Source: Amoebophrya sp. A120 | Lineage: Eukaryota; Protista; Dinoflagellata | DNA length: 64,000 nucleotides | Assembly: GCA_905178155.1 (NCBI GenBank) | Contig: CAJINV010000010.1 | Location: forward strand, 3,740,587 to 3,804,586 | Reading direction: 5' to 3' | In this document: positions 1-63,453 of the stretch, one piece after another | Layout of the letters: each line of letters opens with the position of its first letter | Numbering within the stretch: the first letter of the stretch is position 1 | The notes under the pieces: generated by a model | What the model saw: only the letters and a program-made list of their open reading frames with translations | Database searches by the model: none | Told to the model about the DNA's origin: nothing | Translations under genes and position numbers: made by a program

Positions 1-251
1 GGGTATGGAAGACGAAGATTCCGAAATTTGTCATGCTAGTCCGGCATGGCTCTGAACTCTGTAAGTATTGCGTGGCCCCCGCGACGAGCTCCTAACTCTC
101 TGTCATGCAAAAACGCAGTTTCTCATGCGGAATACGCAACTCAGAACCATGAAAGAGACTTGTCATGCTTGTTAGCAGCGCATTACATTGAGCTCACTAT
201 TCCCTTCTTTGCATCACAAGTTTCCAGAACCAGACATTTTTGCATTTGATA
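1..251. mobile_element. Introner family C, partial (right end only)
   Basis: Ends TTCCAGAACCAGACATTTTTGCATTTGATA, the family C right TIR; internal TTTGTCATGC motifs. Confidence 0.8.
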
Positions 252-1907
252 CCAAGAGGACGGAAGCAATTTCGAGCAAGGTGCTGCTGGTCGTTATCCT
301 GAGTAAAAACGTACCCACACCAGAGTCAAGATGGGGAATCGGCTAGACAAATCCACAAGTTTTGTCTGTTTTGCATGACAAATTTGGATTCGTAGTATAG
401 TGCTGTTTGAGCTAGCTCAGCAGCATCACAGATCTAGCATACCATGCTGATTGGAGCATGACAAGTTGCAAAACACGACTAGAAAATGCTTCTCATGGAG
501 CTCAGCATGAGAAACATTTTCAGCATGCAGATTTGCATTACAACTCTGGCGTGGGTACGTTTTTACTCAGGATAGTCGTGTACCAGTGCACCTGCACCAA
601 CCCTACCCCATCGCGGCGGGACATCAACACGAGCCGGTGTTCGTTTCCGAAGAGGATCAGCATTCGCCGCCACCGGCACTTCAAGCGGATGTTGACAACA
701 CACCTTCCCACGCCGCTACAGCTGGCGAGGTTGAAAATAGTGCGGTATTATATAATCCCCGGGAATTACAGATCCCGATTCCGCAGGACGTGGCGGTTAA
801 TATACAGCGGGAGTTATTTTTGGACGAACAGGGAACAAGCGATCGCACGAACAGCTCGAGCAGCGGGAATCCAGCAGGCTTGGCGTCGTCGTGTCCATCG
901 ATGACGAATAACACAAGAACTTCATCCTCCACTTCCTCCTCTTCTGCCACTGTTTCAACAGACGGGAAAACAAGAATAAATGGTCTGTCTGTGTCTGGAA
1001 ATCCGACAAGTGCAGCAGCAGCTGAGCGTGGAGATGATCCTATCAACTCCCTCCAGTTGCAAGCGCAGCGGGAGACTACTACACGGGTGCGCGAAGGAGG
1101 TTATGATCTTCAAGACGGAAGGGAAATCGGAGTGGAGGATGCAGCTGACAAGGACGACTTGTCGCTCACAAGCACGCCAATACAGCCACGGGAGCTGGTC
1201 ATCCCGGATCCAACGAAATCGCTGCCAGCCGCTAGCAGTTTGATAGCAGCGAGGGCTGGGGCAATCATGAAAACTGACAACAAAAAGCAGGAGATCATGC
1301 CAAGAAGCACTTCTCGGGGCACAAAAACTTCTACTGCGCCCGACCCAACAACAAACCGCGGCGAGAATTGTAGTTCTGAGAAAAATGCTCATGCTGTGAG
1401 TTCATCTGGTGCAGCAGCTTCACATCACGTGCCACTGCAGCTTCCGCCAGATTTGCTGTCGGTCTCAGATAAACACACAGGAGAACGTATCGTGAGTAAA
1501 AACGTCCCCACACCAGAGTTGCAATGCAAATCTGCATGCTGAAAATGTTTCTCATGCGGAGACCCATGAGAAGCAGTCTCTAGTCGTGTTGTGGGATTTG
1601 TGATGCTAGAATCAGCATGGTATGCTAGATCTGTGATGCTGCTGAACAAGCTAAACAGGATTACACTGCGAGGCCAAACTTGTCATGCGCAGCAGCAAAA
1701 GCTGGCAGATTTGTCTAGCAGATTTCCCAGCTTGACTCTGGTGTGGGGACGTTTTTCCTCAGGGTAGAACGAGCTGAGGGAATAACAACCGAAGCATCCT
1801 CCAGTAGTTCCACCTGCTCTGCTAGCACTACTGATGATCATCTTCACGGCGAGAATGTTCAGCGGGAGAACTCGATGAGCACCAGGACGCATCTGGTACT
1901 TAAATAG
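1..1907 (+). CDS. 3' part of an intron-containing gene; Ser/Thr/Ala-rich low-complexity protein, function unknown
   Basis: Exons ~257-294, 580-1487 and 1772-1907 join in frame after removing the introners (..EQGAAGR|VPVHLH..HTGE|RAEGITT..HLVLK*). Stop TAG at 1905-1907; 5' end lies outside the window. Confidence 0.7.
295..574. mobile_element. Introner family A (non-canonical intron)
   Basis: TIR TATCCTGAGTAAAAACGTACCCACACCAGAGT at both ends; TSD GTCGT (290-294, 575-579); removal restores the frame. Confidence 0.95.
1488..1766. mobile_element. Introner family A, opposite orientation to 295-574
   Basis: TSD GAACG; internal sequence is the approximate reverse complement of 295-574; removal restores the frame. 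Confidence 0.95.
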
Positions 1908-1965
1908 AGAAAAAGTTTTTGATGTTGTATGCATCGATAAAGATGCTTCTCCGAGCCTGTGCTGC

Positions 1966-4900
1966 ATGGCAGAGCCTCCTCCTGATGAAACGAAGTAAGT
2001 ACTTCTAGCGCATGACAAACATGAACAAAGTGAAACTCCAAATAAACCTGAAATTTTTTCCCAAGGTGCCCTTCTTCTCGCGCACCCTGCACACGGAGCC
2101 GATCCTCGCTATGGCGTGTATGAGAGTTGTGCACAACTCCCCCTCCTCCTCGTTTGTCATGCAGAATCCGAAGTCCTATCGTTGCGTTGTGGCACGGTCT
2201 GCATGACAAATTCCGGGATCTGAAACAGTACTAGCGTAGGTTCAGCAACTTGTCATGCACTGGATCCACGTGTGCTGGTGTTTGTATTGGTATTCATGCC
2301 GCGCTGCAAATGGAAATGAGGGGGAGGGGGAGTTGTGCACTCCCATTGCGTGCAGCAGCGATTTACTCTCCTACAACTTGCCGGAAATAAGAAGAAGTGC
2401 TTCCAATGCAGAAGAAGTAGACGAAAGAACGTCTAGAACAGGAGAGCAAGACACAAAAACTAATGGCGAAAATCACACACAGACTCAGACCAACGACTCT
2501 GTCTACATCGTCGTGGGCGGCAAGAACGGGCTTTTGCTCATGACGAAAATCGAAAAAATCTTCTCGAACGACATCCACGTGCCGCAATCGGGCGACTTCG
2601 AAAAGGATTTCACGAAGTTTGTCGGGCACGAGAGGACGATTACGAAAGTGCAATTTGTCGCCGCGAGTAGCATGACAAATGTTGCCAGAGCCACCAACTC
2701 ATCTTCCTGTCAGAAGCAGCAGCTGCTCGACAAGGAGCAACTGCGGTTGATTTCCGTGGCAACGGACCGGCAGATCCGAATTTGGTCCTGCGCCACCGGG
2801 GAGTGCCTGCAGATCCACCTGGACTGGGGTATGATGCTCGGGACGGCGATCATTTTGCCGAACAGCAGCTTCCTGATGTACGCAAGCAGCAACCAGAAGC
2901 TACAGGTAGTGCTTTTGTTGCGATGCTCATGTAATGTTGATGCAATATGCTTACGTCAACTTGTTGTTTGTTGCGATCTTCATGTTATGTCTCGTAAATC
3001 AATATCTTTTTGAACAGAATTCAGAGTGGCGCCTCCACCTAGCAGCGCAAGTGAATTTCTGGTTGAACTTTCCTGGAAATAAGAATCATTGTGCAAAGTA
3101 CATGTACAACTCGCATCCATTTCTGTACCCAGGTTGTCGACATCTCCAAGGGTAGTCGTAGCGGTGGGAGTTGTACTAGCAGCACCGAAAGAGGAGCAGG
3201 AGCACAAGTCACGACGACAACGACCGCGAGCGCCGCTTCGGGTTCTTGTGAAAACAAACCAAATACTGCTGCTGAAATGAAAAAAAACGAGTCCACTTTT
3301 CCCCTGGTCCAGGTGTTGCCGTGCGATTACGAAACTTGGTGTCTCTGCCACGACCACCAAGCGGCGGTTGTGGCGGGAACGAAGAATGGCTGTTTGAGGG
3401 TTTTAGAGATCGGGAACGGAGAGGAGGATGGGGGGAGGGACTGGGAAGAGGAAAACGCCCGGTATTTTTCCCTTACAAAGTGACGACTCATCTCAAGCCT
3501 GCCACGACGTCATTATCATGCAGCTGCAGCATGATCCGGATTGGCATTTTCGATATCTTCGTTTTTTTGTTTTGAAGTGGTCTCGTCTCTTAATATCCAG
3601 TACTCTAATCGGAGGTGGTGTCTCGATCACTTATCAAATCGTGCTGAACATTCCACTACCAAACTAGGTCGACGTCCTCCCCACATCCAAGTAACGACCC
3701 CTCGACAACCGCCGCTCTTACCGTGAAAAATTCTTTCCGGTTCCCCATGTGCGGGTCGAACCGCGGCGCACCGGTGACCTGGTATTGTGAGGAAAAATGC
3801 CCCCAGCCCAGAGCTTGGGAGCATTTGTATCGCAGGCGTTTCGAATGGAAACATTCGCCTTCTTAGATGTATCAGCATCACAGATTTCCAATCGCGAGCA
3901 GCAAAAATGTGTATCGCAAAAGATTCCAGCAAGAGCTGCGTTTGTCATGCAAGCGGTGCTATTAAATACGACTCGACTAGACCCCGCATCAGAAAGATTC
4001 ATAGCTCCTTTCATGCATGACAAAAAGTTTTCATTTGGAAACTTCGCATCACAAATTATTGCAATTTTCGGGGTGGGGGCATTTTTCACTGTGATACCTG
4101 GATGACCTTCATCAGGACCGGTTTTGTTGTCTCCTTGGCGATATGCATCGCAAAAGTGTATTAATCGCACTAGTACACGTTGCATTTTCACATGCATAAG
4201 ATAAAGATACCGTTTGTCGTGCGTATTCAGGTGAGAAGGTATCTATGGTAGAATTTTCATGCAGTATGAGTATCGCAATGCCCATGGCGACGAGTCGTGC
4301 GCTAGTACTTTTGCACAGGATTGGCGAACGGTGTGGTGAATGTGGTGGACTGCATTTATAGCGGAGGATATGCAAGAAAAAAACTGTGTAAGTGTAACTC
4401 TGTAATGCAGAACATGCAACAGAGGCACGTCTGTCATGCCAGACAGCCAAAAGGTCCTCTTTTCATGTGTGTTTTCCCTTACAAACCACACATGACAGGT
4501 TTTTTCTGTCATGTAGAGCAAATTTGTGATGCTGTCATCCAAAGAAAGTTACACTAACACTTTTTTTTTCTTGGATAGAGGAGGATCTTCATCGCCTTGT
4601 TCATCAACCTCAGGATCGGGAACCGCAGTAAAAATACCATTACCTCCGGGAAGTAGAAGTAGGAAGAGGTTATGACAATGCACAACTCCCCCTCGTCCCG
4701 CTCATTTGTCATGCAAAATAACCAATCCACCCATTGCCTCTTGGCACTGTTTGCATGACAAGTTCTGGTAGCCCAAATACCACTACACTCCAGTGCAAAT
4801 TTGTCATGCAAAACCGCCATTCTTGCTGATGCTTGTACTGCCGTTCATGCTATGCAAATGAGGGGGAGGGGGAGTTGTGCACTGTCATAAAGGTTGGAAA

Positions 4901-7900
4901 GAATGCAGATTCGAACCAGTGTGAAAACGGAACAACCCACGAGACCCGTACCGCTCAAAAACTGTTTTGTGCCGAGGTACACATCAAAGACCGAACAAAA
5001 ATTTTTAGGGCACAGTGGTGTTGTCGGAGCAAAAAGTGAGTCGAACATTAGCAACACAGACGAGGAGGGCGAGAAAGCACCTCCAGAAGCACAACAAGAA
5101 GAAAAAACTGTTCTTGCCATTGCCACAACTACCGAGTCGTCTTCCGGCACGGCCCATCTTCCACCAGATGTGGAAAGCAGCGCTACCACCTCGTCTTCCG
5201 CGTCATCATGCGGTAACGCCGTGGACCTCCACGGGGAAAAAATAAAACAAGCCACTTCAACTACATCCGGAGAGCCGGAAGCTCGGCCGGAGGTAGTCGA
5301 GACGAATGTAGGAGCGGTTGTACAAGAGGGGAAAGGAAAAAATCCTGAGGCCGTTGAGCAGGTATCTTAATATCGTTCAGATTTTTTGCAGCAAAAATTT
5401 TGCTGCTTTTGGTTTTGGTTTCGATAGTCAGTGCATTGGGAAAGGCGCCGGTGCGTAGGCTTGTTACTGCACTTAATATGCAACACTTCAGTGAAGAACA
5501 AGATTTTTAGCAGCTGTCGTAGGAGCACCAGAGCGGACTTGCGATTCTACTGTGACACCGGTTTCTTGTTTAACTATCTCTTTGATCGCAGCTTTTGAAA
5601 ATCAAAATAACGCGTTTAGAAATGATAACGTGCAGGTGGCGGCTGTCGTTTCCGAAAGAACATCTTCGCCCGGCGCGCTTGCAGCGGAGGAGCATCTTTT
5701 TCGCGGTGAGAATACTGCCGAGGAGGAGGAAGTTGTGCTTCTGGAGGATGCATATACATTGCAAATGCGTCTGGGTCTGGAAGAATGCAAACTTGTCATG
5801 CATATTTTACATCCTCCATGAGGTCTGAAATGCAGGACCTAGCATGACAAGTTCTGCGAAATCTCGATCATGTCCATCCTGCATGACAATCTGCCTCTGA
5901 ACTTGTTCAAAAGTGGACAGCTTTTCGTAATCATGCAACACAAATTTTTGTAAAATCCAGACTTCGCATGACAAGTTGCAATCTTCCAGACCCGGACACA
6001 TTCGCAATTGATAACGCACCAAGCTGCAAGACCGCGGACGACCGCCGGCGCGTCGGGACCAGCGCGAGCGGTTCTGGAACTAGTAGCTGTAGCAGCTCGA
6101 ATTACAGTAACAGGGACATGATTTCCAGAACGCCCCGGCCTTTTGTGACCAGCGAGACCACGTTGAACAAGGAGATGTCCTCAGCACCACCACCAGCGCC
6201 GGGCAGCAGTGCAGCTACTACTATTGCGACATCAAAAATAGGCACCGCCTCGTCCAAACAAGGACGAGAGCAGCTGCCACAGCCAACTTCTGCTACAACT
6301 GGGGCACCTGTGGTGGAGGTGGTTCACGAGCAGTCTAGTTCTTCGTCTTCAGGTGCTTTACCTGGAGAGGGCGACCTCCACACAAAAACTGGTTCTTCAT
6401 CTGTGGATTGTTTACAACCAGCTACGTCGAAACAATATGCATTGCAAAAGTATCGTACTCGTATAAATGCATTACAAACAAGGTCCGAGCACGGGGACAG
6501 AGTCCCCGTGCGGCGACCTTCCGGCATTTGTCTGCGCCGCGCTATGGCACTGGGCAGGCAGGTCGCCTGCAGCTAGGTATCTCGGTGCGCCTTGCATTCA
6601 CTGACCCGCGACGGGCCTGCGCACGCGGCCCCCTTGCTTGCGCGCACTAGATTCTTTCATTAGCCTGCCGCGCGCAAAGATAAAAGAAAAGAAGAAACTG
6701 GCGCGCGCCGGGTCTGGAGCCGGCCCCGCGCGCCCTAGGTCATGACGCGGCGACAGAGTCCCCACACTGCCCTAGGGCTTTTCTATGCCCCCTCCATCCT
6801 TGGCCACGCGGTGTGGCGTCCGGGGAGTGTCCGTAGCTAGCCCCTAGGCCATGACGCGGGGACCGAGTCCCCGCGCTGGCCTAGGGCTTTCGCCCCTTGG
6901 CCGCAAGGTGCCCGGGAAGCGCCCACAGCTGGCCCCTAGGCCATGACGCGGGGACCGGGTCCCCGCGCTGGCCTAGGGCTTTCGCCCCTGCCTTGGCCAC
7001 ACCGCGTCCGGGAAACGCCAACAGCTGGCCCCTAGGCCATGACGCGGGGGCCGAGTCCCCGCGCTGGCCTAGGACTTTCGCCCCTTGGCCACACGGTGAT
7101 CGGGAAGCGCTCAAAGCTGTCCCCTAGGCCATGACGCGAGGACCGAGTCCCCGCGCTGGCCTAGGGCTTTCGCCCCTTGGCCGCACGGCCTCGCGTGACA
7201 GACTGGACTTCGGGCCCAAACCTCACATGGCAAAGTCCGAAAGTTTGGCCGGGGTGTGTCCGAAAGTCTGCCCGGGGTGTGTCTGAAAGTCTGCCCGGGG
7301 TGTGTCTGGGGTATGTTCGGACTTTTTGCCTGGGGTATGTTCGGGGGTCTGTCTGGGGTATGTCTGGGGTCTGTCTGGGGTGTGTCTGGGGTATGTTTAT
7401 ACCCCACCTGTTGGCTTTTCGGCAAAAAATTGTAGTCCGCTCGTGATTGAGGAGCATTTGCATACCCCTGACACACCCCCGAACATACCCCCGAACATAC
7501 CCCTCGCCTGCATTTTTGACCAGCTGCTGCAGTTTAGATAGTAATCTCCTCAGCATGAGAAATAAAATTTGTGATGTTGATTTACCTTAAGGAAAATATG
7601 CATGACTGCAATACGAGTGCGATACTTTTGCAGTTCATAAACAAGTAGTCACCGGCTACGCGATCTCCGGGTCCTGCGCCAAGGATATTTACATCATTCC
7701 GGTTTTCGACCAAGAGGACATGATCAGCCACAACGCCGGTGCTCCTCTCTTGATGGAAAGTCACAACGTAAAAACCCCACAGCATGATGAAGAGCAGCAC
7801 CTCCACCACGGGGCGACGATGGGCAGCACGAGTATCAACTACACTAGAAATAAAACTACTGAGCCAGAACGAGCGAAGTTTGGGTTTACCTGCGCTCAAC

Positions 7901-8007
7901 AGAGAACGGTTTCCGTCGTGGCTGCGGGATTTGATCGCTTTCTGGCGACCGGTGATTTTGACGGGAAAGTGGTGCTGTGGAAACGGGCGGAAGTCGTCGA
8001 AAGATAA
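1966..8007 (+). CDS. WD40-repeat protein, about 12 exons
   Basis: WD motifs FVGHERTITKVQF..LISVATDRQIRIWS and FLATGDFDGKVVLWK. Continuous frame after removing 8 introner-type introns (1996, 2119, 3783, 4142, 4369, 4671, 5753, 6436) and 3 GT-AG introns (2906-3132, 3462-3667, 5362-5635). Confidence 0.8.
1996..2060. other. Degenerate mini-introner / non-canonical intron
   Basis: Flanked by CGAAG/CCAAG, starts TA and contains GCATGACAAA. The +5-nt rule gives the in-frame join ETK|VPFF, whereas the apparent GT-AG pair shifts the frame. Confidence 0.5.
2119..2347. mobile_element. Introner family B
   Basis: TIR core GTGCACAACTCCCCCTCC; TSD GCGTG; join AMAC|SSDLL. Confidence 0.93.
3783..4096. mobile_element. 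Introner family F
   Basis: TIR TAT-N6-GAAAAATGCCCCCA; TSD CCTGG; join PVTW|MTF. Confidence 0.9.
4142..4322. mobile_element. Introner family D (diverged)
   Basis: TIR TAT..GCAAAAGT / ACTTTTGC..GATT; TSD GGCGA; join VSLA|NGVV. Confidence 0.85.
4369..4577. mobile_element. Introner family G
   Basis: TIR TAT.CAAGAAAAAAA..GTGTAAC; TSD GAGGA; in-frame join. Confidence 0.9.
4671..4889. mobile_element. Introner family B
   Basis: TIR TATGACA.TGCACAACTCCCCCTC; TSD GAGGT/AAGGT; join RKR|LERMQ. Confidence 0.93.
5753..6013. mobile_element. Introner family C
   Basis: TIR core TGTCTGGGTCTGGAAG; TSD ATGCA/ACGCA; join EDA|PSCK. Confidence 0.93.
6436..7639. mobile_element. Introner family D enlarged by a nested 1.06-kb insert
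   Basis: TIR TATG...TGCAAAAGTATCG.ACTCGTAT; TSD AACAA; join TSKQ|VVTGY. The flanking parts match the reverse complement of the 154-bp copy at 25937-26090. Confidence 0.9.
6479..7541. repeat. GC-rich nested insert with a ~92-95-bp tandem repeat and a GGGGTRTGT array
   Basis: Units starting CCCTAGG.CATGACGCG at ~6733, 6842, 6934, 7029 and 7121; GGGGTATGT/GGGGTGTGT repeats at ~7250-7397. Confidence 0.85.
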
Positions 8008-8900: not shown

Positions 8901-9630
8901 TGTTGTGTGTTGCCACACTGAACTTCTGAAGATGAAAAAGCAATCTGTTTGCTTTTTGTGCGAGAAAATGTTTTTTCAACTTGCAACGAGGAAAAAGCAA
9001 GAGAAAGTGAAACTCTCGAACAGAAGAATCTGAACAATTTCTGAACTTGTCGACAGGCTTTTGGGAAACATCAACACGAGAATTACCTTGCTCCCTCTGT
9101 GGAGATTAGGTGTTCCAACATTGGTGGAGAACCTAAATTTTTTTTTCGTCCCGTAGAACCCCCTAGGCCCCTAGTTTTCTTGCGTTATCGTATTGCGTAA
9201 TCTTGTTTATGTTTTCTTCCATCGCAATCGTACAGCTAAGGCGTAAAAGCAACTTCGTATCTGTGGAGATTAGGTGTTCCAACATGTTGGATAGATCGGA
9301 ATCATAAGTGACCTCGTGACGATCAGAAGCATAGCACGATGTGAATCGCGACGCAGATCTGGTCTGATGTCAAATCTCTTGGTCTTGTACAGACCGGCGA
9401 TCTGAAAATCCAGGATCCTCCTCCTTATCCGTAGCCATCCTGTTTGTCATGCATATTGTCCATCCTCTTGATGCTTTACCTATCCCCACAGGTTGCGACT
9501 AGTGCCCATGCTAGTGCGTCATCACGTAGTAACGTAAACCGCCCGCGATACGTAGTCGCATAGTATTGCTAGTGCTTGTGCTCACCGTGTTCACGTTCTT
9601 GATCGTGATCGCGCGTCTAGGTTTCTAACA
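8901..9630. mobile_element. Putative solo LTR, 730 bp
   Basis: TGTT...AACA ends; 5-bp TSD ATCAG (8896-8900, 9631-9635); absent from the paralogous segment at ~16251-16290. Confidence 0.7.
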
Positions 9631-9770
9631 ATCAGACTAACGCTCGCGTGATTTTACTATAAATTAGTCGCAATCATGCACTTTTCGTGATTGGCGCAGG
9701 TAAGTAGTTTATTTCTTGACGAGACAGAACGCGCCATCAGCGTCCTGTCTAGAAACATCAAACGCACGCA

Positions 9771-26549: not shown

Positions 26550-26739
26550 AATAGAACTAACAAGAAACCTCGACCAGGTTTTTATGTTTGTTCTCCATGC
26601 ACTCGACGGCGTCAAGACTGGTGGCGTAGTTCACGTGCGGACTACTTGTGGTGAGATGTCTATGTTGTTTCACAACTCTATCTTGCGCAGCAAGAACACT
26701 ACGTCTGATAGAAGTAGAATTTTTGAAGGAATCAAAATC

Positions 26740-50700: not shown

Positions 50701-53700
50701 TACGGCAAGCGGTTTGCGGTCGGGATAGCAACAGGAGGAAAATCGCGTACAGCAACAGTTTTCCTCTCAGCAGAAAAATCAGACCGGTTCCGCGTCATGG
50801 TCTACGCCGTTGGCCCACGCGGAGAAATTTGCTCGAAGGAAAGCTTCTTAGCGGGGATACGGCTTACGACAAAACATATTGTGAACGTGATCCACCACTA
50901 CAACGACTACGCGCAGCGGAAAATCAAAACAGTACGGGCGCCACTTTTGTCGGGCGGGCTCTACCGCAAACCGCGAACCAGCCCGGCGAAAGTTGCAGAC
51001 GCAATTCTGGAAACCTTCCTTGAAGAGTACAGCAAAATCGAGAAGAAAAACCGCTTCGCCGTCGAGTTCGCCATCGCAGAAAATGCGTTCTCCGAGGCCT
51101 ACCGAGAAAGCCGGGAAATCGTCGTCAGCAAGAAGGCCAAGTCTGTGTGTTCCCTCGGCGCAGGTGCAGTCCGTGCGACAAGCAAAAAGAAGAAAAAACC
51201 GCTGCTAGAGAGCTTTGACCTCGACTTCGGTGACGAAATCGACCTCAGCTTCTTCCCCGTCGAAAGCAACCTGCAGCAGGGCGAGGAAGTAGAAGCCGGC
51301 GGCCATACGCTACAAGACTCACTTGAGCCGCTCATCTACGAAGCGGTCGACACCGAGCAGGAAAGAATACTACGAGCGCTGCCCGAGATGCTAAATGCCG
51401 GTCGGTTGTTCTCTGTGCCAGCTGCGCAAGGAAACGAGCCCACCATCGTCGGGTACGTGCAAACGGGAATTTGCCTGGTGGTTAGCAAATCGCACACAAA
51501 AGTCACCAGCATCTTCAGCCTCACGCAAACCAACAGCACCGTCACAGTGCCGGCACGCTTCGCGCACAAAGCAGTACTAGTACTCGCCAAAGAGCTCGAA
51601 GATGGAGACCCGACGAACGCATCCACGGCGCGAAACATCGAGGCGTCGTGCTTTTTAAACGGGCTTTTCCGCAATAGCGTCGCGCAGCACCAGAAAAACT
51701 GCAAGCAGTTTGGCTTTATGTGCCAGCACCTCTCGGGAAACGATGAGGAGCTGACGGCGGCGCAAAAGCGGCAAACGGCGGTCTTGAAGAGCTTCGCCAT
51801 TTGTGCGGGGGTCATGCTGTACAAGGGAAAAATCTATATTCCGCGGGTAGAGCTCGAGATCGACAGTAAATTCTTCAACAACAAAACGCGCATGAGAATC
51901 TACGTCGTTGTGCGCGTCCACAGGAGGTGGGCGCTGCGCAGTAAAATCAGAAGAACCAAGCAAATGGTGAAGGAGTACTTCAACTGGCCGGGGCTGCAGG
52001 AAACCGTCGAACTGGTAGTAAAAACCTGCGTGCAGTGCCGACTGAAACATGCCGCAGAAGAACCCATTGCTGCGTACACGCCGAATCGCCAGCCAAAAAG
52101 GCTGTTCCAAAGCTTTGTCTTCGACCACGTGACGGACTTACCAGAAAGCGAAGACGGGTACAAAAACATCCTCCGCGTCCGGGAAAAACTAGTCGACCTT
52201 GGCTGGCTGATTCCAACAAAAACCAGGGAACCGCAGGAAGCTTGGGATGAGATGTGGAAGTTCGTCTGGGCGCAAGTAGGCTGCCCGGACGACACTGCCG
52301 CGGACAACGCGTTCAATTCACTTGTCGCGTCCTTTGCAGACATGGGCACACTGCACAACCACGGTAGAGCAAACGAGCCACGCGACCAGAACCAGGTGGA
52401 GCGACCGAATAAGGAAGAGAGAGACCGCCTGTTCAAAGTGTGCTCGCGCTTCCCCAAGACGTGGCCAAGAATTCTTCCTCTGCTGCAGCTGATCGACAGA
52501 AACGCGCCCCGACGCAAACTGAACGGGCGCTCCCCTGCAGAAGCCTCCTGTGGACAGAGACTCTGCCTCCCCAGCGCGCAGATCTTCTCCGCCCTCCACC
52601 AAGGGCGCGCAAACCGCGACGAAGTGATGGAGTCGTTGCGGGAGTTCCGAGATGGGATTGTGGAAAATGCAGAGAAGCACAGCATTGACAGCGCGCTTTC
52701 AACACTAAACCGCCGGGGCACGCTAGCGAAAACGGAGATCTGCGCGGGAGACTTGGTAATTAAAAGAAGTGACGCGACAAGCAAACCGACGCTGCAGTAT
52801 GGCCCAGACCCCGAAAAGGCAAAGGTCTGGATTGTAGATGAAGTTGTCGGCGAAACAACACTCAAGCTAACGGCGGCGGCCTCAATCCCGGTAGTAATCG
52901 ACGGCGAGGAAGTTGTGATCAACAGCAGCAACGACAAGCTACCAGAGGAAGAGCGGCTGCAAACAGCGACAGGCTCAGCAAGGCAATTTATCAAGCTGTG
53001 GCTGGACGAGTGCATCAAAATCTTTAGCAATCCGAAAAAAGTCGGCGACCAAGAGGTCTTCGGCGTAAATGTATTGAGCGGGAAGTTTATCACTCGGGAG
53101 GAGACGGACATCGAGCAACTCGGTAAGACCAGGCACAAGATCGCCAAGAAGTACACGTACCTCGAGAAATGCTTGCCCCTGAAGGCGGGCTTCATCTAAA
53201 CTAGCGCGGTCCTCTTCTTCTGGCAACTACAGACGAAAATTTTCTTTTTCGTTTTCTTTTGTGTTTTGTATTTCAATAATAAATAGCGGGCACTTATACG
53301 ATTCTGCACGGAAGTACCATCATGAACGTAAATTTTTTTTCGTTGTTCTCTCTACGTATTTTGTTGTAAATACATAGAGCACCAAACACCATGGTCTCAG
53401 TGTATAAAAGCCAACTTCTCTTCCGAAGCAAAAACTCCGCAAGCGAAGCAGGCTGCGTTATCGTTTGCGTCAATGAAGAAATGCCCTCGAATAGAAATTG
53501 TGGCGCGAAAAGCCTTGCCCACCTGTGCGATGTTGAACACAAAATCTCAACCAGATCCAGTAGCACGCAAGCTGCCTCCTTTCTTGCACCAAACAAAATC
53601 ATGCAAACAGAAATAACGATGCTACGCGTTCGTAAATTGCACACAAAGTGTAGAGCTCTCCCGCAAACACGCAATTATCATAGATGCTACGCGTTCGCAA

Positions 53701-56700: not shown

Positions 56701-58082
56701 TCGCATTCGAAATCGAGACGATCACGAGGAAAGCAGCCCTGCAAATAGTCGCAAGCTTGTGCGTGGCGGTACGCGCGGCCGAGGCGCAGGATGTAAAAGA
56801 AGTTTTCTTCCTCCGTCCGTGAAGTCGAACAGCAAGTAAGCGACGCGATCCTGTATCCGGGGCACAATCAGCCCCCGCTCGAAGCCTGGCTGCAGAAATC
56901 TCCGATCTTCTTCCGCCACTACTGCAAACTCCCGCTCTTCTTCGACGCCGATGTCAAGCGAAGCCGAAATCTTCAAGATCGAACCAGGATTCGCATGTCA
57001 CGCGCAAACCCCTGGCACACAGCAAACCACACAAGACTCCGGGTCCCGGTCAACTACGCAGCGGCAAATCCCGCAACCGCTGCTGCCAGCTGGGTCAGCA
57101 AGTCAGCAGGGACAACCCGGAGCGGTGCCTGTGCACCAAAGCGGAAAAATGCCAGGAAATCCAGTCGACGTCGAGTACATGAAGATGTGGTATCCCGAAA
57201 CGGCTGGAAAAATTGAGAAGGAGTTGGACGACAAGCAGGCACAAATCGCGAAATTGCAAGAGCAAGTCGAGTTGTACAGGCAGACGTCGCAGAAATTGAC
57301 CCAGGCGCTGCATTCGATGGCAAACCGGCAAACTCGAATGCAAACGCACGGGAAGATGCTGCAGCAAGAAATGCTGCAACTGTTTTATGACGACAAGATT
57401 ACTAAAGACGATTGCCAAGCTAATCCTTTGCTTCTCGACTGCTTATACAGCCAAATCTGGTATGAGTACTCTGATTACAGCACTCAAATTTTAAAAAAAT
57501 TTCACATATTCTTTTCAAGTAGTGAAAAATTTTTTTCTTCAAGCGGGGGGATGGATGTAGCGACGGGTGTCCATAGAAACCGTCTGCGCACCATTCTCAC
57601 CGTGTTCGAAGCGCAAAATAGCATTACAGATTTGCGAGGACAACGCGAAAAGATCTTTTCTCCGCAGCAACAAACTCCACTCAACAATGAAAAATGAAGT
57701 AGATCACGAAATTCCTCTTGTGTGCGAAAAAATGAAGCAGCAGTTTTCCAACACTAGAAATTGTAATCTGGACTTCATTGCACGCGAAATTGACGAGGCA
57801 AAAACAATGACGATGAATTTGTGTTCCTTTCAGAAACCATTTCGAACCCAAAAACAGTTAGGAACTTTGAGACTACGACGTGCCGCAAACTGCACTGTGC
57901 ACGCCTGTAAATCTTGAAGCGACGACATCTATGATAAGAACTGGAAGGGAAAAATACAATTGAGAACTCTTGTTCTCCGTGAATTCATCTTCACGAGAAA
58001 TTTGCATTCTGTGTTCCACTAAGCACTTTTGCTACAGGTCTTTAATATTCGCAAAGGAGAACATGAACAAGAGCACGAATAA
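26740..58082 (+). CDS. Small unknown gene (~120 aa) whose last exon is interrupted by the LTR element
   Basis: Exons 26740-26817, ~26955-27002, 27164-27292, 27563-27633 and 58042-58082 join in frame via one GT-AG intron, two introners and the LTR TSD. No recognised domain. Confidence 0.4.
27003..27158. mobile_element. Degenerate introner
   Basis: Starts TATC; TSD ACGCG/CCGCG; internal GCATCACAAA; in-frame join. Confidence 0.55.
27293..27557. mobile_element. Introner family C
   Basis: TSD CTCGG; ~30-bp TIR. Confidence 0.94.
27634..28123 (+). repeat. 5' LTR, 490 bp
   Basis: Direct repeat of 57556-58036; by eye ~15 substitutions and one 9-bp indel. Confidence 0.97.
28125..28139 (+). promoter_or_regulatory. 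Primer-binding site, tRNA-Gly-like
   Basis: TGGTGCATCAGCCGG, 1 nt after the LTR; reverse complement CCGGCTGATGCACCA resembles the 3' end of eukaryotic tRNA-Gly. Confidence 0.8.
28272..29504 (+). CDS. Extra 5' ORF of the LTR element (410 aa), function unknown
   Basis: Long open frame between the PBS and the gag-like region; non-ATG start in the ORF track. Confidence 0.6.
   Translation: MTSSSSKSSSSSSSVEASKSVVIDCDAIWYAIHKEFAEAKPAAQRAKQPSADPVGDLVDCGANCTVVDKNKDWREATICNWQAAVAIAAAYPERNTVFAATNLPVQTYDDGGLPEIHRTEVILSPRGLERVLLLDTDEVNKCSETLLVKLREQEADGEILLFPPKQNASVGGVNVNAEKANVGQKLLCTPATIEEYNSPKTGHDYHETYDNRHRFFPHEQDLPKGYRSKTCGTSADPASPLYQTEDEITAHAWEAARRKPRTGTKLQSYRSGAQIKHAPGVRVQLGDDTRRHFEAGRLAPRLKDNAKKQLDAILFDINNTPSARHYCDARRVLDYELNTLAENNTEWVQATFNWFKKYNLGPEHDTRCVYVNPSEVTPLDVVNAFVQFNYPAFQFLDCDLNRIGADELER
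29513..34456 (+). pseudogene. gag: gag-like region split into four overlapping frames
   Basis: ORFs 29513-30466, 30429-31424, 31393-33564 and 33503-34456 overlap successively. Coiled-coil N-terminal part; degenerate knuckle C-x4-H-x4-C (CKGISHVAQEC) in a Cys-rich block just upstream of the protease. Confidence 0.6.
34453..35568 (+). CDS. pol: pol part 1: aspartic protease
   Basis: YWCQIDTGDDF (D-T-G motif). The frame continues at 46702 once the nested element is removed (..ASLET|RDEDAI..). Confidence 0.85.
36098..40085 (+). CDS. Putative DDE transposase with CxxH motif, spliced
   Basis: Candidate catalytic residues IEFDGTP (D 36596), VCDGG (D 36896), CAVH (37189) and KTERAH (E 38355); 850-aa last exon; NLS-like PAPKRRKV. 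First exon junction uncertain. Confidence 0.6.
36929..37086. mobile_element. Decayed introner in the transposase gene
   Basis: TATG..GAAAA / TTTTTCC..GATA ends; several TTTGTCATGC motifs; TSD ACTAT/AATGT. The +5 rule is 1 nt out of frame here. Confidence 0.55.
37365..37484. mobile_element. Introner family H in the transposase gene
   Basis: ~30-bp TIR ATGCATTTGAAA.CGAGCAGCTACGACAGG; TSD GATTA/GCTGA; join GAD|YDLTNN. Confidence 0.85.
40809..45929 (+). CDS. Second spliced gene (or genes) of the nested transposon, function unknown
   Basis: Co-oriented exon-like ORFs: Lys/Ala-rich start at 40809, then 42125-43308, 43437-43791, ~43896-44030, ~44090-44330, 44440-44757, 44921- and 45262-45620. Two junctions verified in frame; the rest are unresolved. 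Confidence 0.5.
43309..43431. mobile_element. Decayed introner
   Basis: TATC...TATA ends; GCATGACAGA motif; flanks CCGGA/CTCTA; +5 rule gives TP|DVVRG. Confidence 0.65.
44758..44915. mobile_element. Introner family I with erased TSD
   Basis: TIR TATGC..TG.AAAAACGAAA..GGAGTTTGTCATG; flanks CAGTA/TTGGT; +5 rule gives ELPV|DDHG. Confidence 0.75.
46702..53199 (+). CDS. pol: pol part 2: reverse transcriptase, RNase H, Macro domain, integrase
   Basis: RT: LVRDAYFGF, GLGPKQNP, FMDD (47488), WLGEI. RNase H: FGDAS, TREL, CHDH, PDGRSR. Macro: INAG..HFGGAGLS, VYAVGP, APLLSGGLY. Integrase: H..FNWPGL..CVQC, FDHVTDLP, ADNAF, QVERPN. Confidence 0.93.
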   Translation, partial: RDEDAIVALQEEIRKAREEEESGEPLAKVTHDHYIRTCSEELSKETTHRLAVSASHILATHQPGEPQPVLKGCVAKWTMGPNEEAAAARPIELNRYNEIAMDYHVEEAIRTDKDEPYGWQQINGPAGPPRIISPGFLVKHVKKDKTTGKMKPVRRKRIAINYQLHNVKTRGCAWVPVQNTNLFYKSRKLKLVRDAYFGFSTLRVSSKTSALAAWSTGLRKRPVMRPKRCGLGPKQNPNNFSMRSETAFGWQQNAKGEYNTHAFMDDVKNSGDDIQTEVAGAVFASKENDHYPALLCDREDWEIDSEPDAESEEEAVDSGLPLDPKMHAKFRQEPEEVMARNAAELKFDRKVMRNTCNRSRLYSTGFENINDQSTVLPREKIATPACMQETDRGKIEAHTIDAFATLAWQTAFGQDWEKVIAIITTDLDGNALRVVLQTESDITLEAAIAPVSGANNRPRDTVTAWIFSDEKTAEKCLHLHRKVWHESDVVDADARINAQAKLCGFAFSIAKLQPASLAVKWLGEIVHPDGGTGINEEQIEKLRELAKEASKDAITAVVHISSWEGVRNYIHNHAETVLPLRPYLLPKNNPKHKPIALFKTDVAAQEALVMVAEKAGPQLRKYPIDWQAVLYFVGFGDASKIKWSVSLWGSYEEEPKTRLHDNAEQMWRTELNWPAKTRELRCMKNFFKYLYPLTEGVSLVYCHDHLSNSPEQLLSSLDGVNVDEVVKRDIHFLKPFLATTWLLHLGGTALRFPDGRSRLYDLEDFNLQKIVPKEACDSAEVALFWLLNPTAREDPEWKAKFIKMGKELAEMEDDDQAFEDEAEMGRKISAVRKLGAPQCEDAGLQTALLCVDPEGPDAHVAANGMVRSLCWANTTHACVRAAKNEKKQKASSSSSSVSAQKLKEEESKIKPTYGGRGRVDWEEIFDEPTAVIRPKRLYTKRDAQVKSGHEYFNYVLDVEVTQGGKTEKVTRWLGRNKCKKLDKDLSDEQATKMAYEEALAFLRKAVGLRWAEEQKQLEHGYHGDVSHNFIILDPIASETSNPVPQFANDFTCRNVMFKDQNYCDNYLILREAVNCTYARCRGRGSVVLRKPSESDDLTPLHDVGVPVESEVKWTTASNELHEKVALPLLQRWFGKQAADGSDIPSGDSKPDGEEAAPPLPQENLTPREEVVQASPAAVQQQAAANEPAQPRPHEEPAAQQPDAGAQVENLAQDEQEESDTPADQIYKHNYRGHRVPDEFVFKTATEGQKYSDPFPPIKAKNTFFVAGINAGSEDLHFGGAGLSKRFREVLGDKKTSTLWDVAAQKKFRIELEKKLLAQPGEVLSCDDKEFLEKYGKRFAVGIATGGKSRTATVFLSAEKSDRFRVMVYAVGPRGEICSKESFLAGIRLTTKHIVNVIHHYNDYAQRKIKTVRAPLLSGGLYRKPRTSPAKVADAILETFLEEYSKIEKKNRFAVEFAIAENAFSEAYRESREIVVSKKAKSVCSLGAGAVRATSKKKKKPLLESFDLDFGDEIDLSFFPVESNLQQGEEVEAGGHTLQDSLEPLIYEAVDTEQERILRALPEMLNAGRLFSVPAAQGNEPTIVGYVQTGICLVVSKSHTKVTSIFSLTQTNSTVTVPARFAHKAVLVLAKELEDGDPTNASTARNIEASCFLNGLFRNSVAQHQKNCKQFGFMCQHLSGNDEELTAAQKRQTAVLKSFAICAGVMLYKGKIYIPRVELEIDSKFFNNKTRMRIYVVVRVHRRWALRSKIRRTKQMVKEYFNWPGLQETVELVVKTCVQCRLKHAAEEPIAAYTPNRQPKRLFQSFVFDHVTDLPESEDGYKNILRVREKLVDLGWLIPTKTREPQEAWDEMWKFVWAQVGCPDDTAADNAFNSLVASFADMGTLHNHGRANEPRDQNQVERPNKEERDRLFKVCSRFPKTWPRILPLLQLIDRNAPRRKLNGRSPAEASCGQRLCLPSAQIFSALHQGRANRDEVMESLREFRDGIVENAEKHSIDSALSTLNRRGTLAKTEICAGDLVIKRSDATSKPTLQYGPDPEKAKVWIVDEVVGETTLKLTAAASIPVVIDGEEVVINSSNDKLPEEERLQTATGSARQFIKLWLDECIKIFSNPKKVGDQEVFGVNVLSGKFITREETDIEQLGKTRHKIAKKYTYLEKCLPLKAGFI
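53600..53772. repeat. ~64-bp tandem repeat x3 downstream of pol
   Basis: GATGCTACG.G.TCG.AAATTG at ~53619, 53683 and 53747. Confidence 0.75.
54107..54508 (+). CDS. Extra 3' ORF of the LTR element, Lys-rich/acidic (133 aa)
   Basis: ATG start, GC3-rich codons, KSKKKKKKA; lies ~65 nt after a TATAAAA at ~54040. Confidence 0.55.
   Translation: MGDSQQPTIKDKSKGKTGPTDQDKSKKKKKKAPGTAASSKQNPNESDSEKSSDMDLAGGIKGESLLINEKDKALFEKEKDKSLLKTEEQESSQANAEDADGEWDESEWRLQCDQWRSNGHEQAARILPQNSLE
55620..56105 (+). CDS. Extra 3' ORF, coiled-coil (161 aa)
   Basis: ATG start; heptad-like YRKQIVEQSEEISKLRLEKEYLKKQ. Confidence 0.5.
   Translation: MSDTITKYVDLYSDKNDNKNFDYYRESTIQSLLPYSLEERASYRKQIVEQSEEISKLRLEKEYLKKQSGEVCAASQELGKLLDPPSFNSGMLPPTAVIGNLERELHYAKQLLTKMGRARYFNEHENLVYKVEKFVDGKFTHRSHFGTPPLQTTFNTFGKPH
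56118..56822 (+). CDS. Extra 3' ORF, function unknown
   Basis: 234-aa open frame; the real start may be the ATG at 56241. Confidence 0.4.
   Translation: MLSFFLERQVTLLQHEIRKILILRSFLFLFQNSTPVPPQRTMGASRRVRTYPPTTKPRLAEKKTRNRCNLASRKVQYSDTCWVLGNLIESASVGTDWTSSDELCYALEEIALREKRSASTIFRATRRGPDTEISTSLRQFSNPIRGALQRPKTTEWQLLQSATDLKIILKLSREPVLLQIARAGPNPAPLKQVYFAFEIETITRKAALQIVASLCVAVRAAEAQDVKEVFFLRP
56951..57697 (+). CDS. Extra 3' ORF, Gln-rich/coiled-coil, reading into the 3' LTR
   Basis: 248-aa frame crosses the PPT and the LTR start. Confidence 0.45.
   Translation: MSSEAEIFKIEPGFACHAQTPGTQQTTQDSGSRSTTQRQIPQPLLPAGSASQQGQPGAVPVHQSGKMPGNPVDVEYMKMWYPETAGKIEKELDDKQAQIAKLQEQVELYRQTSQKLTQALHSMANRQTRMQTHGKMLQQEMLQLFYDDKITKDDCQANPLLLDCLYSQIWYEYSDYSTQILKKFHIFFSSSEKFFSSSGGMDVATGVHRNRLRTILTVFEAQNSITDLRGQREKIFSPQQQTPLNNEK
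57541..57555 (+). promoter_or_regulatory. Polypurine tract
   Basis: AAGCGGGGGGATGGA immediately before the 3' LTR. Confidence 0.8.
57556..58036 (+). repeat. 3' LTR, 481 bp
   Basis: TGTAGC...GCTACA followed by the TSD GGTCT. Confidence 0.97.
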
Positions 58083-60324: not shown

Positions 60325-63300
60325 ATGGTCTCCGTGGTCTTTCGTCGCGTGCTTGCCGCTGCCGGCAGCATGTCCGTCTACTTGCACGGAGAAGCGGTTC
60401 TGAAAGGGTTGCTGGGAGGTGGACATCGAGCCACTTTCTCGGAAATAACCAGTCTTCGGACCATGAGCAACGTGTTGAATGTTGGCCAGCACTTTGACGT
60501 TCATCCGGGCCTTGTGGTTGCCGTCCAGTTGCGGTCCCGGCCGGGAAGCAGCGGCGATGGGAAGAACTGGAATGGTAAAAAGCAGTCGAAAGGAAAGGGG
60601 CGGGGTCGGGGGCGAGGGGACGACGGCGGCAAGGGTGGTGGAAAAGGAAAGGTGGAGAGCTGCAACGTATTACAATGAAAAACGATCGTCCCACGACGAC
60701 CCCAGACGTTTCAGATATTTGTGTATGCATATTAAGGTTTTCAAATGCAAAACTCTTTACTTATCAATCTATGCATGCTTGGATCGGAAGACTGCCCCTG
60801 CTACTGCTTTCGATTGTTCTAAGTGTGCAAAGCAGCTCTTACACTACAAGCCCTCCTTGTGCTGGGCCTTTTTGCAAGACAAATTTTTGCTATCCTGGGT
60901 TGAACATTTATCGTCATGCAAATGAAAGGTCGCAAATGTTTCCATTGGTAACTTTGCAATACAAACGCTTCCACATTCTGGCGTTGGGGCACTTTTCGTT
61001 GTAATACAACGGAGATCCTAAGAAAGACCCGTGCCACGAGCGCTATATTTCGAAGCTACAGACTTACGCAAACACAGGCAATATTGAGGGCGCAGAAGCT
61101 GTTTTCAAGCTCATCCAACGAGACGCACACCTGTGCTTTACTGCCATCCACTACGACATGCTGATCAGCGCCTACGCCAAAAGGGGCCTTGTTTGGGGCG
61201 CAATAAATGTTATTCAGAGGATGCGCCAAGAAGAAAACATGGCGCCGACTGTCGTCACCTACAAGTCTTTGCTGACCTGCTACGCCAATGCGGGCAAACT
61301 GGAACGGAACTCAGACAGCACGCCAGAGGCTGTTCTGTCTGAGATGATGGAGTGCGACGGGGTGGCGCCGCATGTCGTCCTGAGGACGCTTCTGAATGCC
61401 TACGCTGAGAGAGGCAACGGCCCGGGCGCAGACCGTGTTTTCCGAATAATGAAAGACGCACCAGGCCCGGCGCCGGATGTCGTCACCTACAACATCCTTA
61501 TCAAAGCCCACGTTCGGAATCGCGACGTTGATAGCGCATACGGCGTGCTTCAAATCATGAGAGACGCACGCGCGGCGCCGGACGTCCGCACCTACACCGC
61601 GCTAGTGGATGCCTGCGCTAGGAGTGGCAACGTTCGGGGCGCATACGAGTTGTTTCAAATGATGCAAGACGAAGGCGTGGCGCCAAATGTCGTCACCTAC
61701 AACGTTCTCATAGCAGCCCACGCTCGGAAACGCGACGAACGGGGTCGTGCATGGGATGTGTTTCAAATGATGACAGACGCAGGCGTATCACGAGAAAAAA
61801 GTGTTACAGTAACACATTTGTTGGAGTTTCTGCATCACAAATTTTCTCTGCGTGGCAGAGAAAACTTGTAATGCGAAGATCATAAGGGAACACAGGAAGG
61901 AAACGAGGCTCCCAAGCATTTCCTGCATGAGAGAGGTTGTCTGTGTTGCCGGTCTTGCAACACAATGTGTAACTGTAACACTTTTTTCTTGCGATAAGGC
62001 GTGGCGCCGAATGTCGTCACCTACACCTCGCTTATCCTGCGCAAAAGTATCGTAGTCGTACTAATTGCAAATATGCATGACAAATCTCCTTCCTAAGGTA
62101 AAACAGCATTACAAATTCCACTTTTCTTCTTGCCAAAATTTGTGATGCAATTTATACTAGTACGATACTTTTGCAATGCATATCGCTAGTGGATGCCTGC
62201 GCTAAGAGTGGCAACGTTCGGGGCGCATACGATGTGTTTCAAATGATGCAAGACGAAGGCGTGGCGCCGAATCTCTTCACCTACACCGCGCTGCTGGGTG
62301 CGCACATGGACGCGGCCGCCGCGGAAAACGACAAGAAAATCCGTGGCGACATTATCCGGGATATTCTACTTAAAAACGTACTTACCCACCCCATAGTCAA
62401 GATCGGGAATCGGCTAGACAAATCCACAAGCTTTGGCTGTTTCGCATGACAAATTTGGACGCGTAGTGCTGTTTGAGCTAGTTCAGCAGCATTACAGATC
62501 TAATCTCTCATGCTGATTGGAGCATGACAAATTTCAAAACACCATTAGAAAATGCTTCTCGTGGGGCTCCGCATGAGAAACATTTTAAGCATGCAGATTT
62601 GCATGACAACTATGGCGTGGGGACGTTTTTACACAGGATACGGGACGGCATTGGCCAGCTGCTGGACTTGATGCTAAGAGCCGAAAATTGGAGGCCTAAC
62701 GATGCTTATGAAATGCGAATATGTCATCTGGGTCTGGAAGGTTCTTGCAACTTGTGATGCTAAATCTGAATCACGCAAAAAATCTGTGTTGCATGTTTAC
62801 CTACAGCCGTCCTTTTTTACCAAGTTGAGAGGGAATTTCTCATGCAGGATAGGCATGATCGAGATCTCACAGAATTTGTCATCCTAGGTGCTGCATTCCA
62901 GACCTCATGGGTCATGGAAAACCTACATGACAAATCTGGCATCCTTCCAGACCCAGACATATTTGCACTGGATATTGCTACCTTCCGAAGTATTTTCCAA
63001 CGCCAGTATGATAGGATGGGCAGGACAGAGGAGGCCAGGAAGCTGGTCCGCGAAATGGAGTATCAAGTGCGAATGTGTCTGGGTCTGGAAGATTGCTGAG
63101 GTTTGCGATGCAGTGTCTACTGCGTGGCCCAGTCCCAGAACATCCGCCACGCAAGTCCTAGCGTCACAGGTGTGCCTGAGACTGTTTCTTCAGGCCTAAT
63201 CCGCATGACAAATGCCTTCTGTTTTTGACAGCAAGAAGAGGGACTTTTGCTGCCCAAGCATGACAGATTTTTGGGTGATCTAAAATCTAAATGTGCACTA

Positions 63301-63453
63301 CAAGCTCACAGCTTCTTTATTCCAGCAGACCCAGACACACTTGCATTCGATATGGAAGCCGCGGCAGAAGCTGTAAGGGATGAGGCCATACTGGAGACAC
63401 CCGGTGCAGCCCAAAGCCACAGCACTGGCCTCCGTTCGTGCCCGCTGCCTTAA
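60325..63453 (+). CDS. Pentatricopeptide-repeat (PPR) protein, 7 exons
   Basis: 35-aa repeats such as PDVVTYNILIKAH and PNVVTYNVLIAAH; Gly/Lys/Arg-rich N-terminal tract. Six introners removed with the +5 rule give one frame ending CPLP*. Confidence 0.9.
60668..61006. mobile_element. Introner, family A-related
   Basis: TIR TATTACAA.GAAAA; TSD CAACG; join SCN|GDP. Confidence 0.9.
61786..61996. mobile_element. Introner family G
   Basis: TSD AGGCG; join restores the PPR motif DAG|VAPNVVTY. Confidence 0.95.
62033..62182. mobile_element. Introner family D
   Basis: TSD TCGCT; join restores TYTS|LVDACAK. Confidence 0.95.
62362..62640. mobile_element. Introner family A, same orientation as 295-574
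   Basis: TSD CGGGA; internal sequence closely similar to 295-574. Confidence 0.94.
62707..62974. mobile_element. Introner family C
   Basis: TSD ATGCT/TTGCT. Confidence 0.92.
63061..63352. mobile_element. Introner family C
   Basis: TSD TGGAG/TGGAA. Confidence 0.92.

Follow-up and report, generated by a model that had tools for sequence, protein, structure and literature searches.

Inverted-repeat introners in a 64-kb stretch of Amoebophrya sp. A120 and their very probable removal from RNA together with one copy of a five-base-pair repeat

Introduction

About 29,850 repeated introns have been described in the dinoflagellate Amoebophrya sp. A120 as introners of ~240 nt with noncanonical ends and many families, whose borders were called variable or unknown (Farhat 2021, PMC7789003; this and the other articles are cited for the parts of their text that were available). 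Their inverted repeats start with TAT, followed by seven less-conserved bases and an A-run, and are associated with direct repeats of 3–5 nt, 5 bp in the legend of an example figure, while in A25 all nine predominant motifs are TT and the repeats start TTA-R-R (PMC7789003). In the same report, 83 of 89 spliceosomal proteins were found along with U2, U4, U5, and U6, and U1 was undetected in A120 (PMC7789003). A family of A120 introners with terminal inverted repeats (TIRs) and an integrase-like open reading frame (ORF) has also been reported (PMC12130899). How Amoebophrya removes its noncanonical introns is a question left by the 2021 study, for which the geometry described here is sharper and testable. 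We analyzed 64,000 nt of the A120 genome (GenBank assembly GCA_905178155.1, contig CAJINV010000010.1, forward-strand positions 3,740,587 to 3,804,586), hereafter “the window”, in which genes are interrupted by TIR elements. These are A120-type introners, i.e. members of a system already known: they combine a TAT-starting arm and A-run with a direct repeat, repeated families, and removal with noncanonical ends, and do not differ in kind from the published ones (PMC7789003). An initial annotation of the window, made from its letters alone, was thus right to regard introners flanked by inverted and direct repeats as established in Amoebophrya. Added here are a strict 5-bp repeat, removal of exactly the element plus 5 nt, a cut likely confined to base 3–4 of the repeat, GT-AG options left unused, and a polar first T. 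In the literature searched, where subscription papers, figures, and datasets were thinly covered, neither a fixed offset nor a polar invariant U was stated for Amoebophrya.

Comparable systems exist elsewhere. Nonconventional introns of Euglena resemble the window elements in their terminal pairing, asymmetric offsets, junction-blurring direct repeats, and suspected origin from miniature inverted-repeat transposable elements; circles have been reported, and the machinery is thought to be distinct from the spliceosome (PMC12501133). Their signature, 5'-N3CDG-/-CH'GN5-6|R-3' with an exonic purine (PMC12501133), is nonetheless absent from the window elements, which have TAT...ATA ends, offsets of about 1 and 4, and no exonic base preference, and come from an unrelated lineage. 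Introners of Micromonas, Aureococcus, and Symbiodinium are likewise non-autonomous, bear TIRs and target-site duplications (TSDs), and restore the mRNA on removal, but they carry or co-opt GT/GC and AG (PMC9860276, PMC11282704), neither of which the window elements use. Fritillaria sets a precedent in that its spliceosome has adapted to introns that derive from transposons and lack GT-AG (PMC11282704, PMC13326754), although specific terminal dinucleotides are kept there, AG-A(N) according to Farhat (PMC7789003), whereas in the window neither the first base nor the 3' dinucleotide seems constrained. Among transposons, IS3EU/GingerRoot and IS481EU have similar TA..TA or TNT..AYA termini, short TIRs, and integrase-like DDE enzymes, but their TSDs measure 6 bp and ~4/15/25 bp, respectively (PMC10045372), against 5 bp here. 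The window elements thus share the TA..TA termini of IS3EU/GingerRoot, while its 6-bp TSD was found in 0 of 35 of them and in 0 of 264 elements from a second assembly.

Results

Motif-free and boundary-first scans of the window identified 35 complete TIR elements and one truncated by the window start (1–251, family D5, right arm ending at 251), which revises the ~38 insertions counted initially (coordinates of elements are given without strand). Elements are 120–340 nt long, except for two that reach 1204 and 2223 nt owing to inserts, and cluster at 1–27.6 kb, 36.4–44.9 kb, and 60.7–63.4 kb; the same scans detected none at 27.6–36.4 kb and 45–60.6 kb. The shared TAT...ATA termini noted in the initial annotation are perfect in 29 of 35 elements, with deviations in those starting at 1488, 2119, 17566, 27293, 36448, and 37365. 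Its mispaired zone just inside the TAT is also real, as arm positions 4–7 are paired in just 14–24 of 35 elements compared to 32–33 for positions 1–3 and 27–34 for positions 8–15, and in predicted folds positions 8–24 are paired with the opposite arm in 25–31 of the 33 elements folded. The proposed 5-bp TSD was likewise recovered: the direct repeat is exact in 18 elements, has one mismatch in 13, and matches at three or fewer of five bases in 4, while no exact repeat was found at lengths 3, 4, or 6–9 (0/35 each) and an exact 2-nt repeat in 6 of 35. Mean repeat identity is 0.85 at length 5 vs 0.20–0.36 at lengths 2–4 and 6–9. The flanks display no exonic base preference, and at loci L001–L168 (see below) the 5-bp target is without clear consensus.

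Removal of the elements was evaluated in four of 11 listed sequencing runs (X1, X3, X9, and X10) compared to window positions 14000–27700. The RNA label of X3 was a guess that its coverage supports: X3 behaves as RNA because, unlike X1, it has zero depth in an intergenic bin and within the long element. One X3 contig (record 13, 2346 nt) spans a TLC-like membrane protein gene (20044–26554, + strand) by joining 19926–20167, 20786–21399, 24340–24987, and 26377–26866, with no other letters in the four pieces. The gaps between these pieces (51, 113, and 188 nt) extend over two, three, and five elements, and each of the three sums gives 5.0 nt beyond element length per element, exactly the difference between intron and element length that had been predicted. 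The elements concerned are 20174–20390 (TSD GTTCG, exact) and 20446–20785 (GCGGG, exact) in the first gap; 21402–23624 (left/right copies TCCTC/TCGTC), 23705–23972 (AACAC/ACCAC), and 24024–24344 (GTCCT, exact) in the second; and 24993–25304 (CTCCA, exact, in opposite orientation to 24024), 25340–25599 (TCTGT, exact), 25662–25859 (ACTTC, exact), 25937–26090 (CCGGA/CCGTA), and 26123–26374 (GGTGC/GCTGC) in the third. The 2.2-kb element at 21402 is removed whole, elements in both orientations are tolerated, and elements fill 4.6 of the 6.5 kb of one gene. In total, removal was seen for ten elements as sums and for one more (14558–14836, TCGAT/TCGAC) by a contig end at 14552, and 7 of 7 piece ends at element junctions among those listed fit the leftmost-joint prediction (six in record 13, one in record 9).

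X1, by contrast, behaves as DNA. In the eight X1 contigs listed (depth 21–31), every one of the 11 ends that face a junction continues 23–99 nt into an element, their depth summed over elements is very high, with elements recurring in families genome-wide, and the search for empty sites in genomic reads suggested in the initial annotation returned none among the 15 joints listed for this one DNA run (with 1588 further joints). The raw-read runs X9 and X10 cover 6 and 3 of 30 bins, respectively, at 90–99% identity, and include no junction of these genes. Hence, of the two routes considered initially, removal of the element plus 5 nt very probably occurs at the RNA level, while DNA excision akin to that of ciliate internal eliminated sequences (IESs) is unlikely in view of both the listed DNA contigs, which continue into the elements, and a conservation of element ends that follows the transcript strand (see below).

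Reading frames are consistent with the same rule. Removing each element plus 5 nt yields a stop-free frame of 641 codons in the TLC-like gene, which does need the ten events claimed for it, and of 527 codons in a pentatricopeptide repeat (PPR) protein gene (60325–63453, + strand) with six elements: 60668–61006 (CAACG, exact), 61786–61996 (AGGCG, exact), 62033–62182 (TCGCT, exact), 62362–62640 (CGGGA, exact), 62707–62974 (ATGCT/TTGCT), and 63061–63352 (TGGAG/TGGAA). Extra lengths other than 2 modulo 3 leave frames of only 241–348 codons, and lengths 2 and 8 are also in frame. An extra length of 5 gave the best score against all 8 homologues compared (15 were found), and the alignment to one of these (P0001) at this length has zero gaps at the four junctions covered. 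The restored frames therefore stand, as does the PPR motif, confirmed by Pfam; the TLC motif is a lead only, suggested by Atlas matches with PF03798 on 24–56% of members, a recognition below the bar of the tool. One of six homologues of this gene scanned has a PF03798 match, below the cut-off, and Pfam returned no match on the window exons of the gene. No protein product, whether annotated or derived from cDNA, was matched in word-index searches, which is weak evidence, and amino-acid plausibility at mismatched repeats was uninformative. At 62707, the right repeat copy better matches what we take to be the PPR consensus.

An arm-motif scan extended these observations to at least 168 loci (L001–L168), with all 80 among the matches listed belonging to assembly JACKZZ01. 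These loci represent DNA distinct from the window, in which the elements are retained too, on either orientation relative to the gene (80 vs 88). Of 264 elements identified independently of the repeat, 200 have an exact 5-bp repeat, 26 have one mismatch, and none has an exact 6-bp repeat. Lengths of element plus 5 nt are distributed over the three frames as 90/84/90, i.e. two thirds would shift the frame if kept. When flanks were called independently with a window-trained model, one retained repeat copy was required in 74 of 89 callable cases, leaving out 101 ambiguous and 29 strand-discordant ones; this count supersedes a frame-join count (169/182) that was dropped as preselected.

Canonical splice sites do not explain the removal. 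The initial annotation held that in-frame removal generally cannot use GT-AG. There is indeed no GT-AG requirement, and such options are unused at three elements; an in-frame GT-AG lies within 15 nt at 14 of 35 elements. On the + strand, 3 of 35 elements would allow exact removal of element plus 5 nt to have GT/GC-AG ends, and the elements are not characterized by the GT/GC-AG ends of spliceosomal (U2) introns. At 20174 and 20446, the in-frame alternative G|TAT...ATA|G (element plus 2 nt) predicts a gap of 57 nt where 51 is observed. At 26123, the exact GT-AG register needs base 2 of the right repeat copy, and it is the left copy that is kept. GT donors of host introns in the window have the sequences GTAG, GTAT, GTAT, GTAA, and GTAA.

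Where both repeat copies are identical the junction cannot be placed, and mismatched copies are needed to locate the cut within the duplication. Base 3 of the left copy is kept at 21402 (cut at or after base 3), base 2 of the left copy at 26123 (cut at or after base 2), and base 5 of the right copy at 14558 (cut at or before base 4, assuming a + strand transcript; coding-model margin 15.8). If the offset is fixed, the cut thus likely falls after base 3 or 4. We consider a single fixed offset for all elements probable and, given such an offset, a cut after base 4 quite probable; the base-4 mismatch at 25937–26090 could separate the two positions. The nine predominant A120 motifs in Table S4 of Farhat all start with N-T (PMC7789003), as expected from a cut one base before TAT. 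The initial claim of cuts at fixed offsets from the stem base accordingly holds to the extent that the three junctions carrying information all point to base 3 or 4, the recognition machinery being a matter of inference. Insertions at loci L001–L168 are biased in phase, with 96 of 193 repeats beginning at codon position 3, which would correspond to phase 0 if the cut follows base 4. This bias was not used as evidence, as 42% is already expected from a symmetric target matrix fitted to these data, and window phases are 12/10/6.

All families appear to descend from one kind of transposon. The pattern TAT-N7-[AC]A[AC] is common to 56 of 70 arms, with positions 11–13 mostly A, and a GCATGA/GCATCA-type interior motif occurs in 35 of 35 elements (134 matches in 11.7 kb vs 69 in 52.3 kb outside). 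Clustering yielded four multi-copy groups and seven singletons whose interiors match between groups. The reported “at least nine families” with unrelated cores are therefore related, and the argument from common ends on unrelated families to a shared recognition system is not supported: because the families look like one transposon lineage, TAT/ATA may be inherited transposon ends. Two elements, 17566–17885 (TAG...ACA ends, TSD TGGAA/GGGAA) and 17944–18208 (TCGAT, exact), are absent from a paralogous gene, where each site has one repeat copy (one TGGAA for the former), and intact PPR repeats similarly have one copy where a sister repeat bears the element at 61786. Inverted ends, 5-bp repeats, and empty paralogous sites together identify the elements as insertions with target-site duplication. 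A DDE (integrase-like) transposase that recognizes the TAT...ATA ends may have mobilized them, as the TIRs, 5-bp duplications, and empty sites suggest; within the 64-kb window, no autonomous copy bearing such ends was found.

The genes concerned, 9630–12070 and 16265–18845, are tandem paralogues with 81–89% identical blocks and a signal-peptide-like start, and the first of the pair includes a ~70-nt repeat expansion. They have one introner in common (10786–11074, CTTCA/CTACA, the same insertion as 17025–17303, CAACA/CTACA) and differ by two, making the pair a natural test of intron gain. The right end of 17566–17885 is TGT, and its arm family is also found in locus L014; this terminus is presumably that of Ginger and long terminal repeat (LTR) elements.

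Conservation of element ends follows the direction of the transcript. In a JACKZZ01 set whose arms were found by positions 4–24 only (245 elements, 208 oriented; 0 false calls in 30 shuffled loci), the first base never deviates on the transcript-5' arm and deviates seven times on the 3' arm (p 0.016). For the first two bases, the counts are 1 (A>G) vs 10 (p 0.012). Control positions 9, 11, 12, and 13 are symmetric (20/24, 13/13, 8/8, and 8/7), which argues against a strand mutation bias, and a stricter element set gave first-base deviations of 0 vs 6. An invariant first T on the 5' arm, with a 3' partner that varies, fits recognition at the RNA level, and this T perhaps corresponds to U at position +2 of a donor site from which G+1 has been lost.

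Discussion

We lean towards spliceosomal chemistry for the removal of these elements, and narrowly favor the fuller reading in which transposon copies with 5-bp duplications are removed by a modified spliceosome, their paired ends positioning both cuts. In this process, the RNA hairpin would serve as a ruler setting both cuts, the 5' one most likely 1 nt before TAT and the 3' one 4 nt after ATA (alternatively 2 and 3), such that the intron would read N-UAU...AUA-NNNN. Terminal T and A would stand at +2 and +3, like a GU(A/G) donor without its G, while the 3' site would be set by distance, not by AG. A modified spliceosome is favored because, with a cut after base 4, U+2/A+3 match the window donors GTAG, GTAT, and GTAA, and because the repeat ends of A25 read TTARR with TT motifs and most parts of the spliceosome are reported as present, with U1 undetected. 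A universal version of this ruler, i.e. a spliceosome that has dispensed with G+1, the 3' AG, and U1, retains only U+2 along with a purine at +3, and sets its 3' site at a fixed distance past the hairpin, is a possibility we hold only tentatively.

Several observations weigh against this modified-spliceosome reading. Five small internal exons were verified as sums only, the offset relies on three junctions from two contigs of one run, no junction displayed separates cut 3 from cut 4, and the decayed element at 36929 breaks the rule on frame. In Table S4, A-N is the ending of eight of the nine motifs given for A120, and splice sites are described as varying relative to the hairpin (PMC7789003); since A-N endings fit a cut after base 4 only if strands are mixed, the support from Table S4 is suggestive. 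Terminal positions 1–3 are predicted to be paired in just 19–23 of the 33 folded elements. With looser criteria for elements, which admit false calls (13 false candidates in 40 shuffled loci), the polarity is less marked (2 vs 9, p 0.065; 10 vs 16, p 0.33), and the window element at 27293, if on the - strand (margin 7.5), has a 5' TTT and is a possible 5' exception. There is no polarity at position 3 (5 vs 3), the 3'-arm U-run is kept no better than its 5' mirror, a branch-point-like motif (YTRAY) is not enriched in the sense direction (23 sense vs 40 antisense), and the arms show no excess of G.U over A.C (176 vs 187). Finally, A>G accounts for five of the seven changes in the 3' arm, a substitution tolerable by U.G wobble, so that these could reflect a need for pairing and not the reading of a donor.

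Some of these points lead to a close rival, in which the same hairpin-measured removal from RNA is performed by a non-spliceosomal endonuclease and ligase reading the stem base, as proposed for Euglena. This is a plausible scenario, if in our view a somewhat doubtful one: AG, branch point, and pyrimidine-tract polarity are all absent, orientations are equal, GT-AG is passed over where present, wobble can account for five of the seven terminal changes, and Euglena introns have a similar offset geometry with the longer overhang at 3' (PMC12501133). Conversely, the invariant T followed by a purine on the 5' arm reproduces +2/+3 of the host donors, non-wobble changes at positions 1–2 are likewise seen on the 3' arm (0 vs 5), and the TTARR ends of A25 and a largely intact spliceosome (PMC7789003) point to splicing. 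Under either chemistry, the cut may slide within the 5-bp repeat, e.g. between base 3 and base 4, with the same mRNA as long as the repeat is perfect. The description of sites as variable, 1–5 nt from the repeats (PMC7789003), would agree with sliding, as would the scarcity of one-mismatch repeats (just 26/264) and the position of base-4 mismatches, all at third codon positions (4/4 in the second assembly, 1/1 in the window) as if both copies were used. That codon-position count is tiny and concerns one of five positions inspected, however, an aligner facing a perfect repeat produces apparent variability, and three informative junctions fit one window while three decayed elements are in frame at element plus 5 nt; we thus consider sliding unlikely.

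Two further explanations would move the removal away from RNA processing altogether. Programmed, ciliate-IES-like DNA excision would leave one repeat in a transcribed somatic genome, and pointer-type DNA elimination does leave the same footprint of element plus one repeat. It is very improbable here given that X1 contigs continue into elements at all 11 ends listed with no empty site among the 15 joints listed, that the second assembly retains elements, and that end conservation follows transcript direction; moreover, we know of no split between germline and somatic nuclei in dinoflagellates. Alternatively, the missing segments could be template switches of reverse transcriptase across hairpins between direct repeats, in genes that are in fact broken. 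A hairpin with a direct repeat is a known signature of such artefacts, and the evidence does consist of cDNA-derived contigs, but the rebuilt proteins align to homologues without junction gaps and to PPR repeats, two thirds of elements would shift the frame if retained, and ten events occur in one contig, leaving this explanation barely credible.

In practice, the element-plus-5 rule provides a simple annotation rule for genes in these genomes. If the spliceosomal reading is true, a 3' site can be chosen by RNA structure and distance, which would explain how a DNA transposon fills coding sequence at little cost. If the ruler reading is true, any TAT...ATA element with a 5-bp duplication would be silent at any site and in either orientation, with tens of thousands spliced.

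Other features of the window

The first host gene (1–8007, + strand), with weak WD40-like beta-propeller matches, combines nine introners with GT-AG introns (donors at 2906, 3462, and 5362). Its complete elements are 295–574 (GTCGT, exact), 1488–1766 (GAACG, exact; TAT...GTA ends, in opposite orientation to 295–574), 2119–2347 (GCGTG, exact; TAT...ATT ends), 3783–4096 (CCTGG, exact), 4369–4577 (GAGGA, exact), 4671–4889 (GAGGT/AAGGT), 5753–6013 (ATGCA/ACGCA), and 6436–7639 (AACAA, exact), the last a 1.2-kb introner of the 150-nt family with a GC-rich tandem insert. Two others with deviating termini are 27293–27557 (CTCGG, exact; TAT...AAA ends, host strand ambiguous) and 36448–36571 (ACCCT/ACGCT; TAA...ATA ends). 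Within the 2.2-kb introner, of the 279-nt family, a ~1.9-kb insert (21466–23390) ends in GAT repeats; the exon frame continues 344 codons into this insert, yet the spliced contig is without the whole 2.2 kb.

Four decayed introners are found in two genes within a 30-kb LTR-bracketed region. Three keep the frame at element plus 5 nt, namely 37365–37484 (repeat 3/5, TAT...ATC ends), 44311–44432 (repeat 0/5, in frame also via a GT-AG alternative), and 44758–44915 (repeat 1/5), while for 36929–37086 (repeat 3/5) element plus 5 nt does not connect to the long upstream frame. All four are short (120–158 nt) and have an extra TA or TAT before the TAT. The one at 44311 has CAG directly after ATA and an in-frame GT upstream, and may have turned into a canonical intron. 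Pfam matches and homologues were both absent for the two intron-bearing genes of this region.

The region itself is bracketed by an LTR-like pair of ~490 bp (27634–28124 and 57556–58037; 95% identical, TGTA...TACA, with GGTCT outside both ends) around ~30 kb with long A-rich ORFs, one of which (46654–53199, 2181 codons) has an integrase zinc-binding match. Short AATAGACAAAAA-type motifs are repeated at 41130–41290 and 46390–46550, inverted, on both sides of a gene at 42050–45930, and these arrays are possibly the ends of a larger DNA transposon. GC-rich tandem or quasi-palindromic arrays (68-nt unit; 92–109-nt unit) were also detected at 6733–7400, 12599–13535, and 13770–14000, the array at 12599–13535 being surrounded by an 85-nt inverted pair (12412–12496 and 14230–14314).

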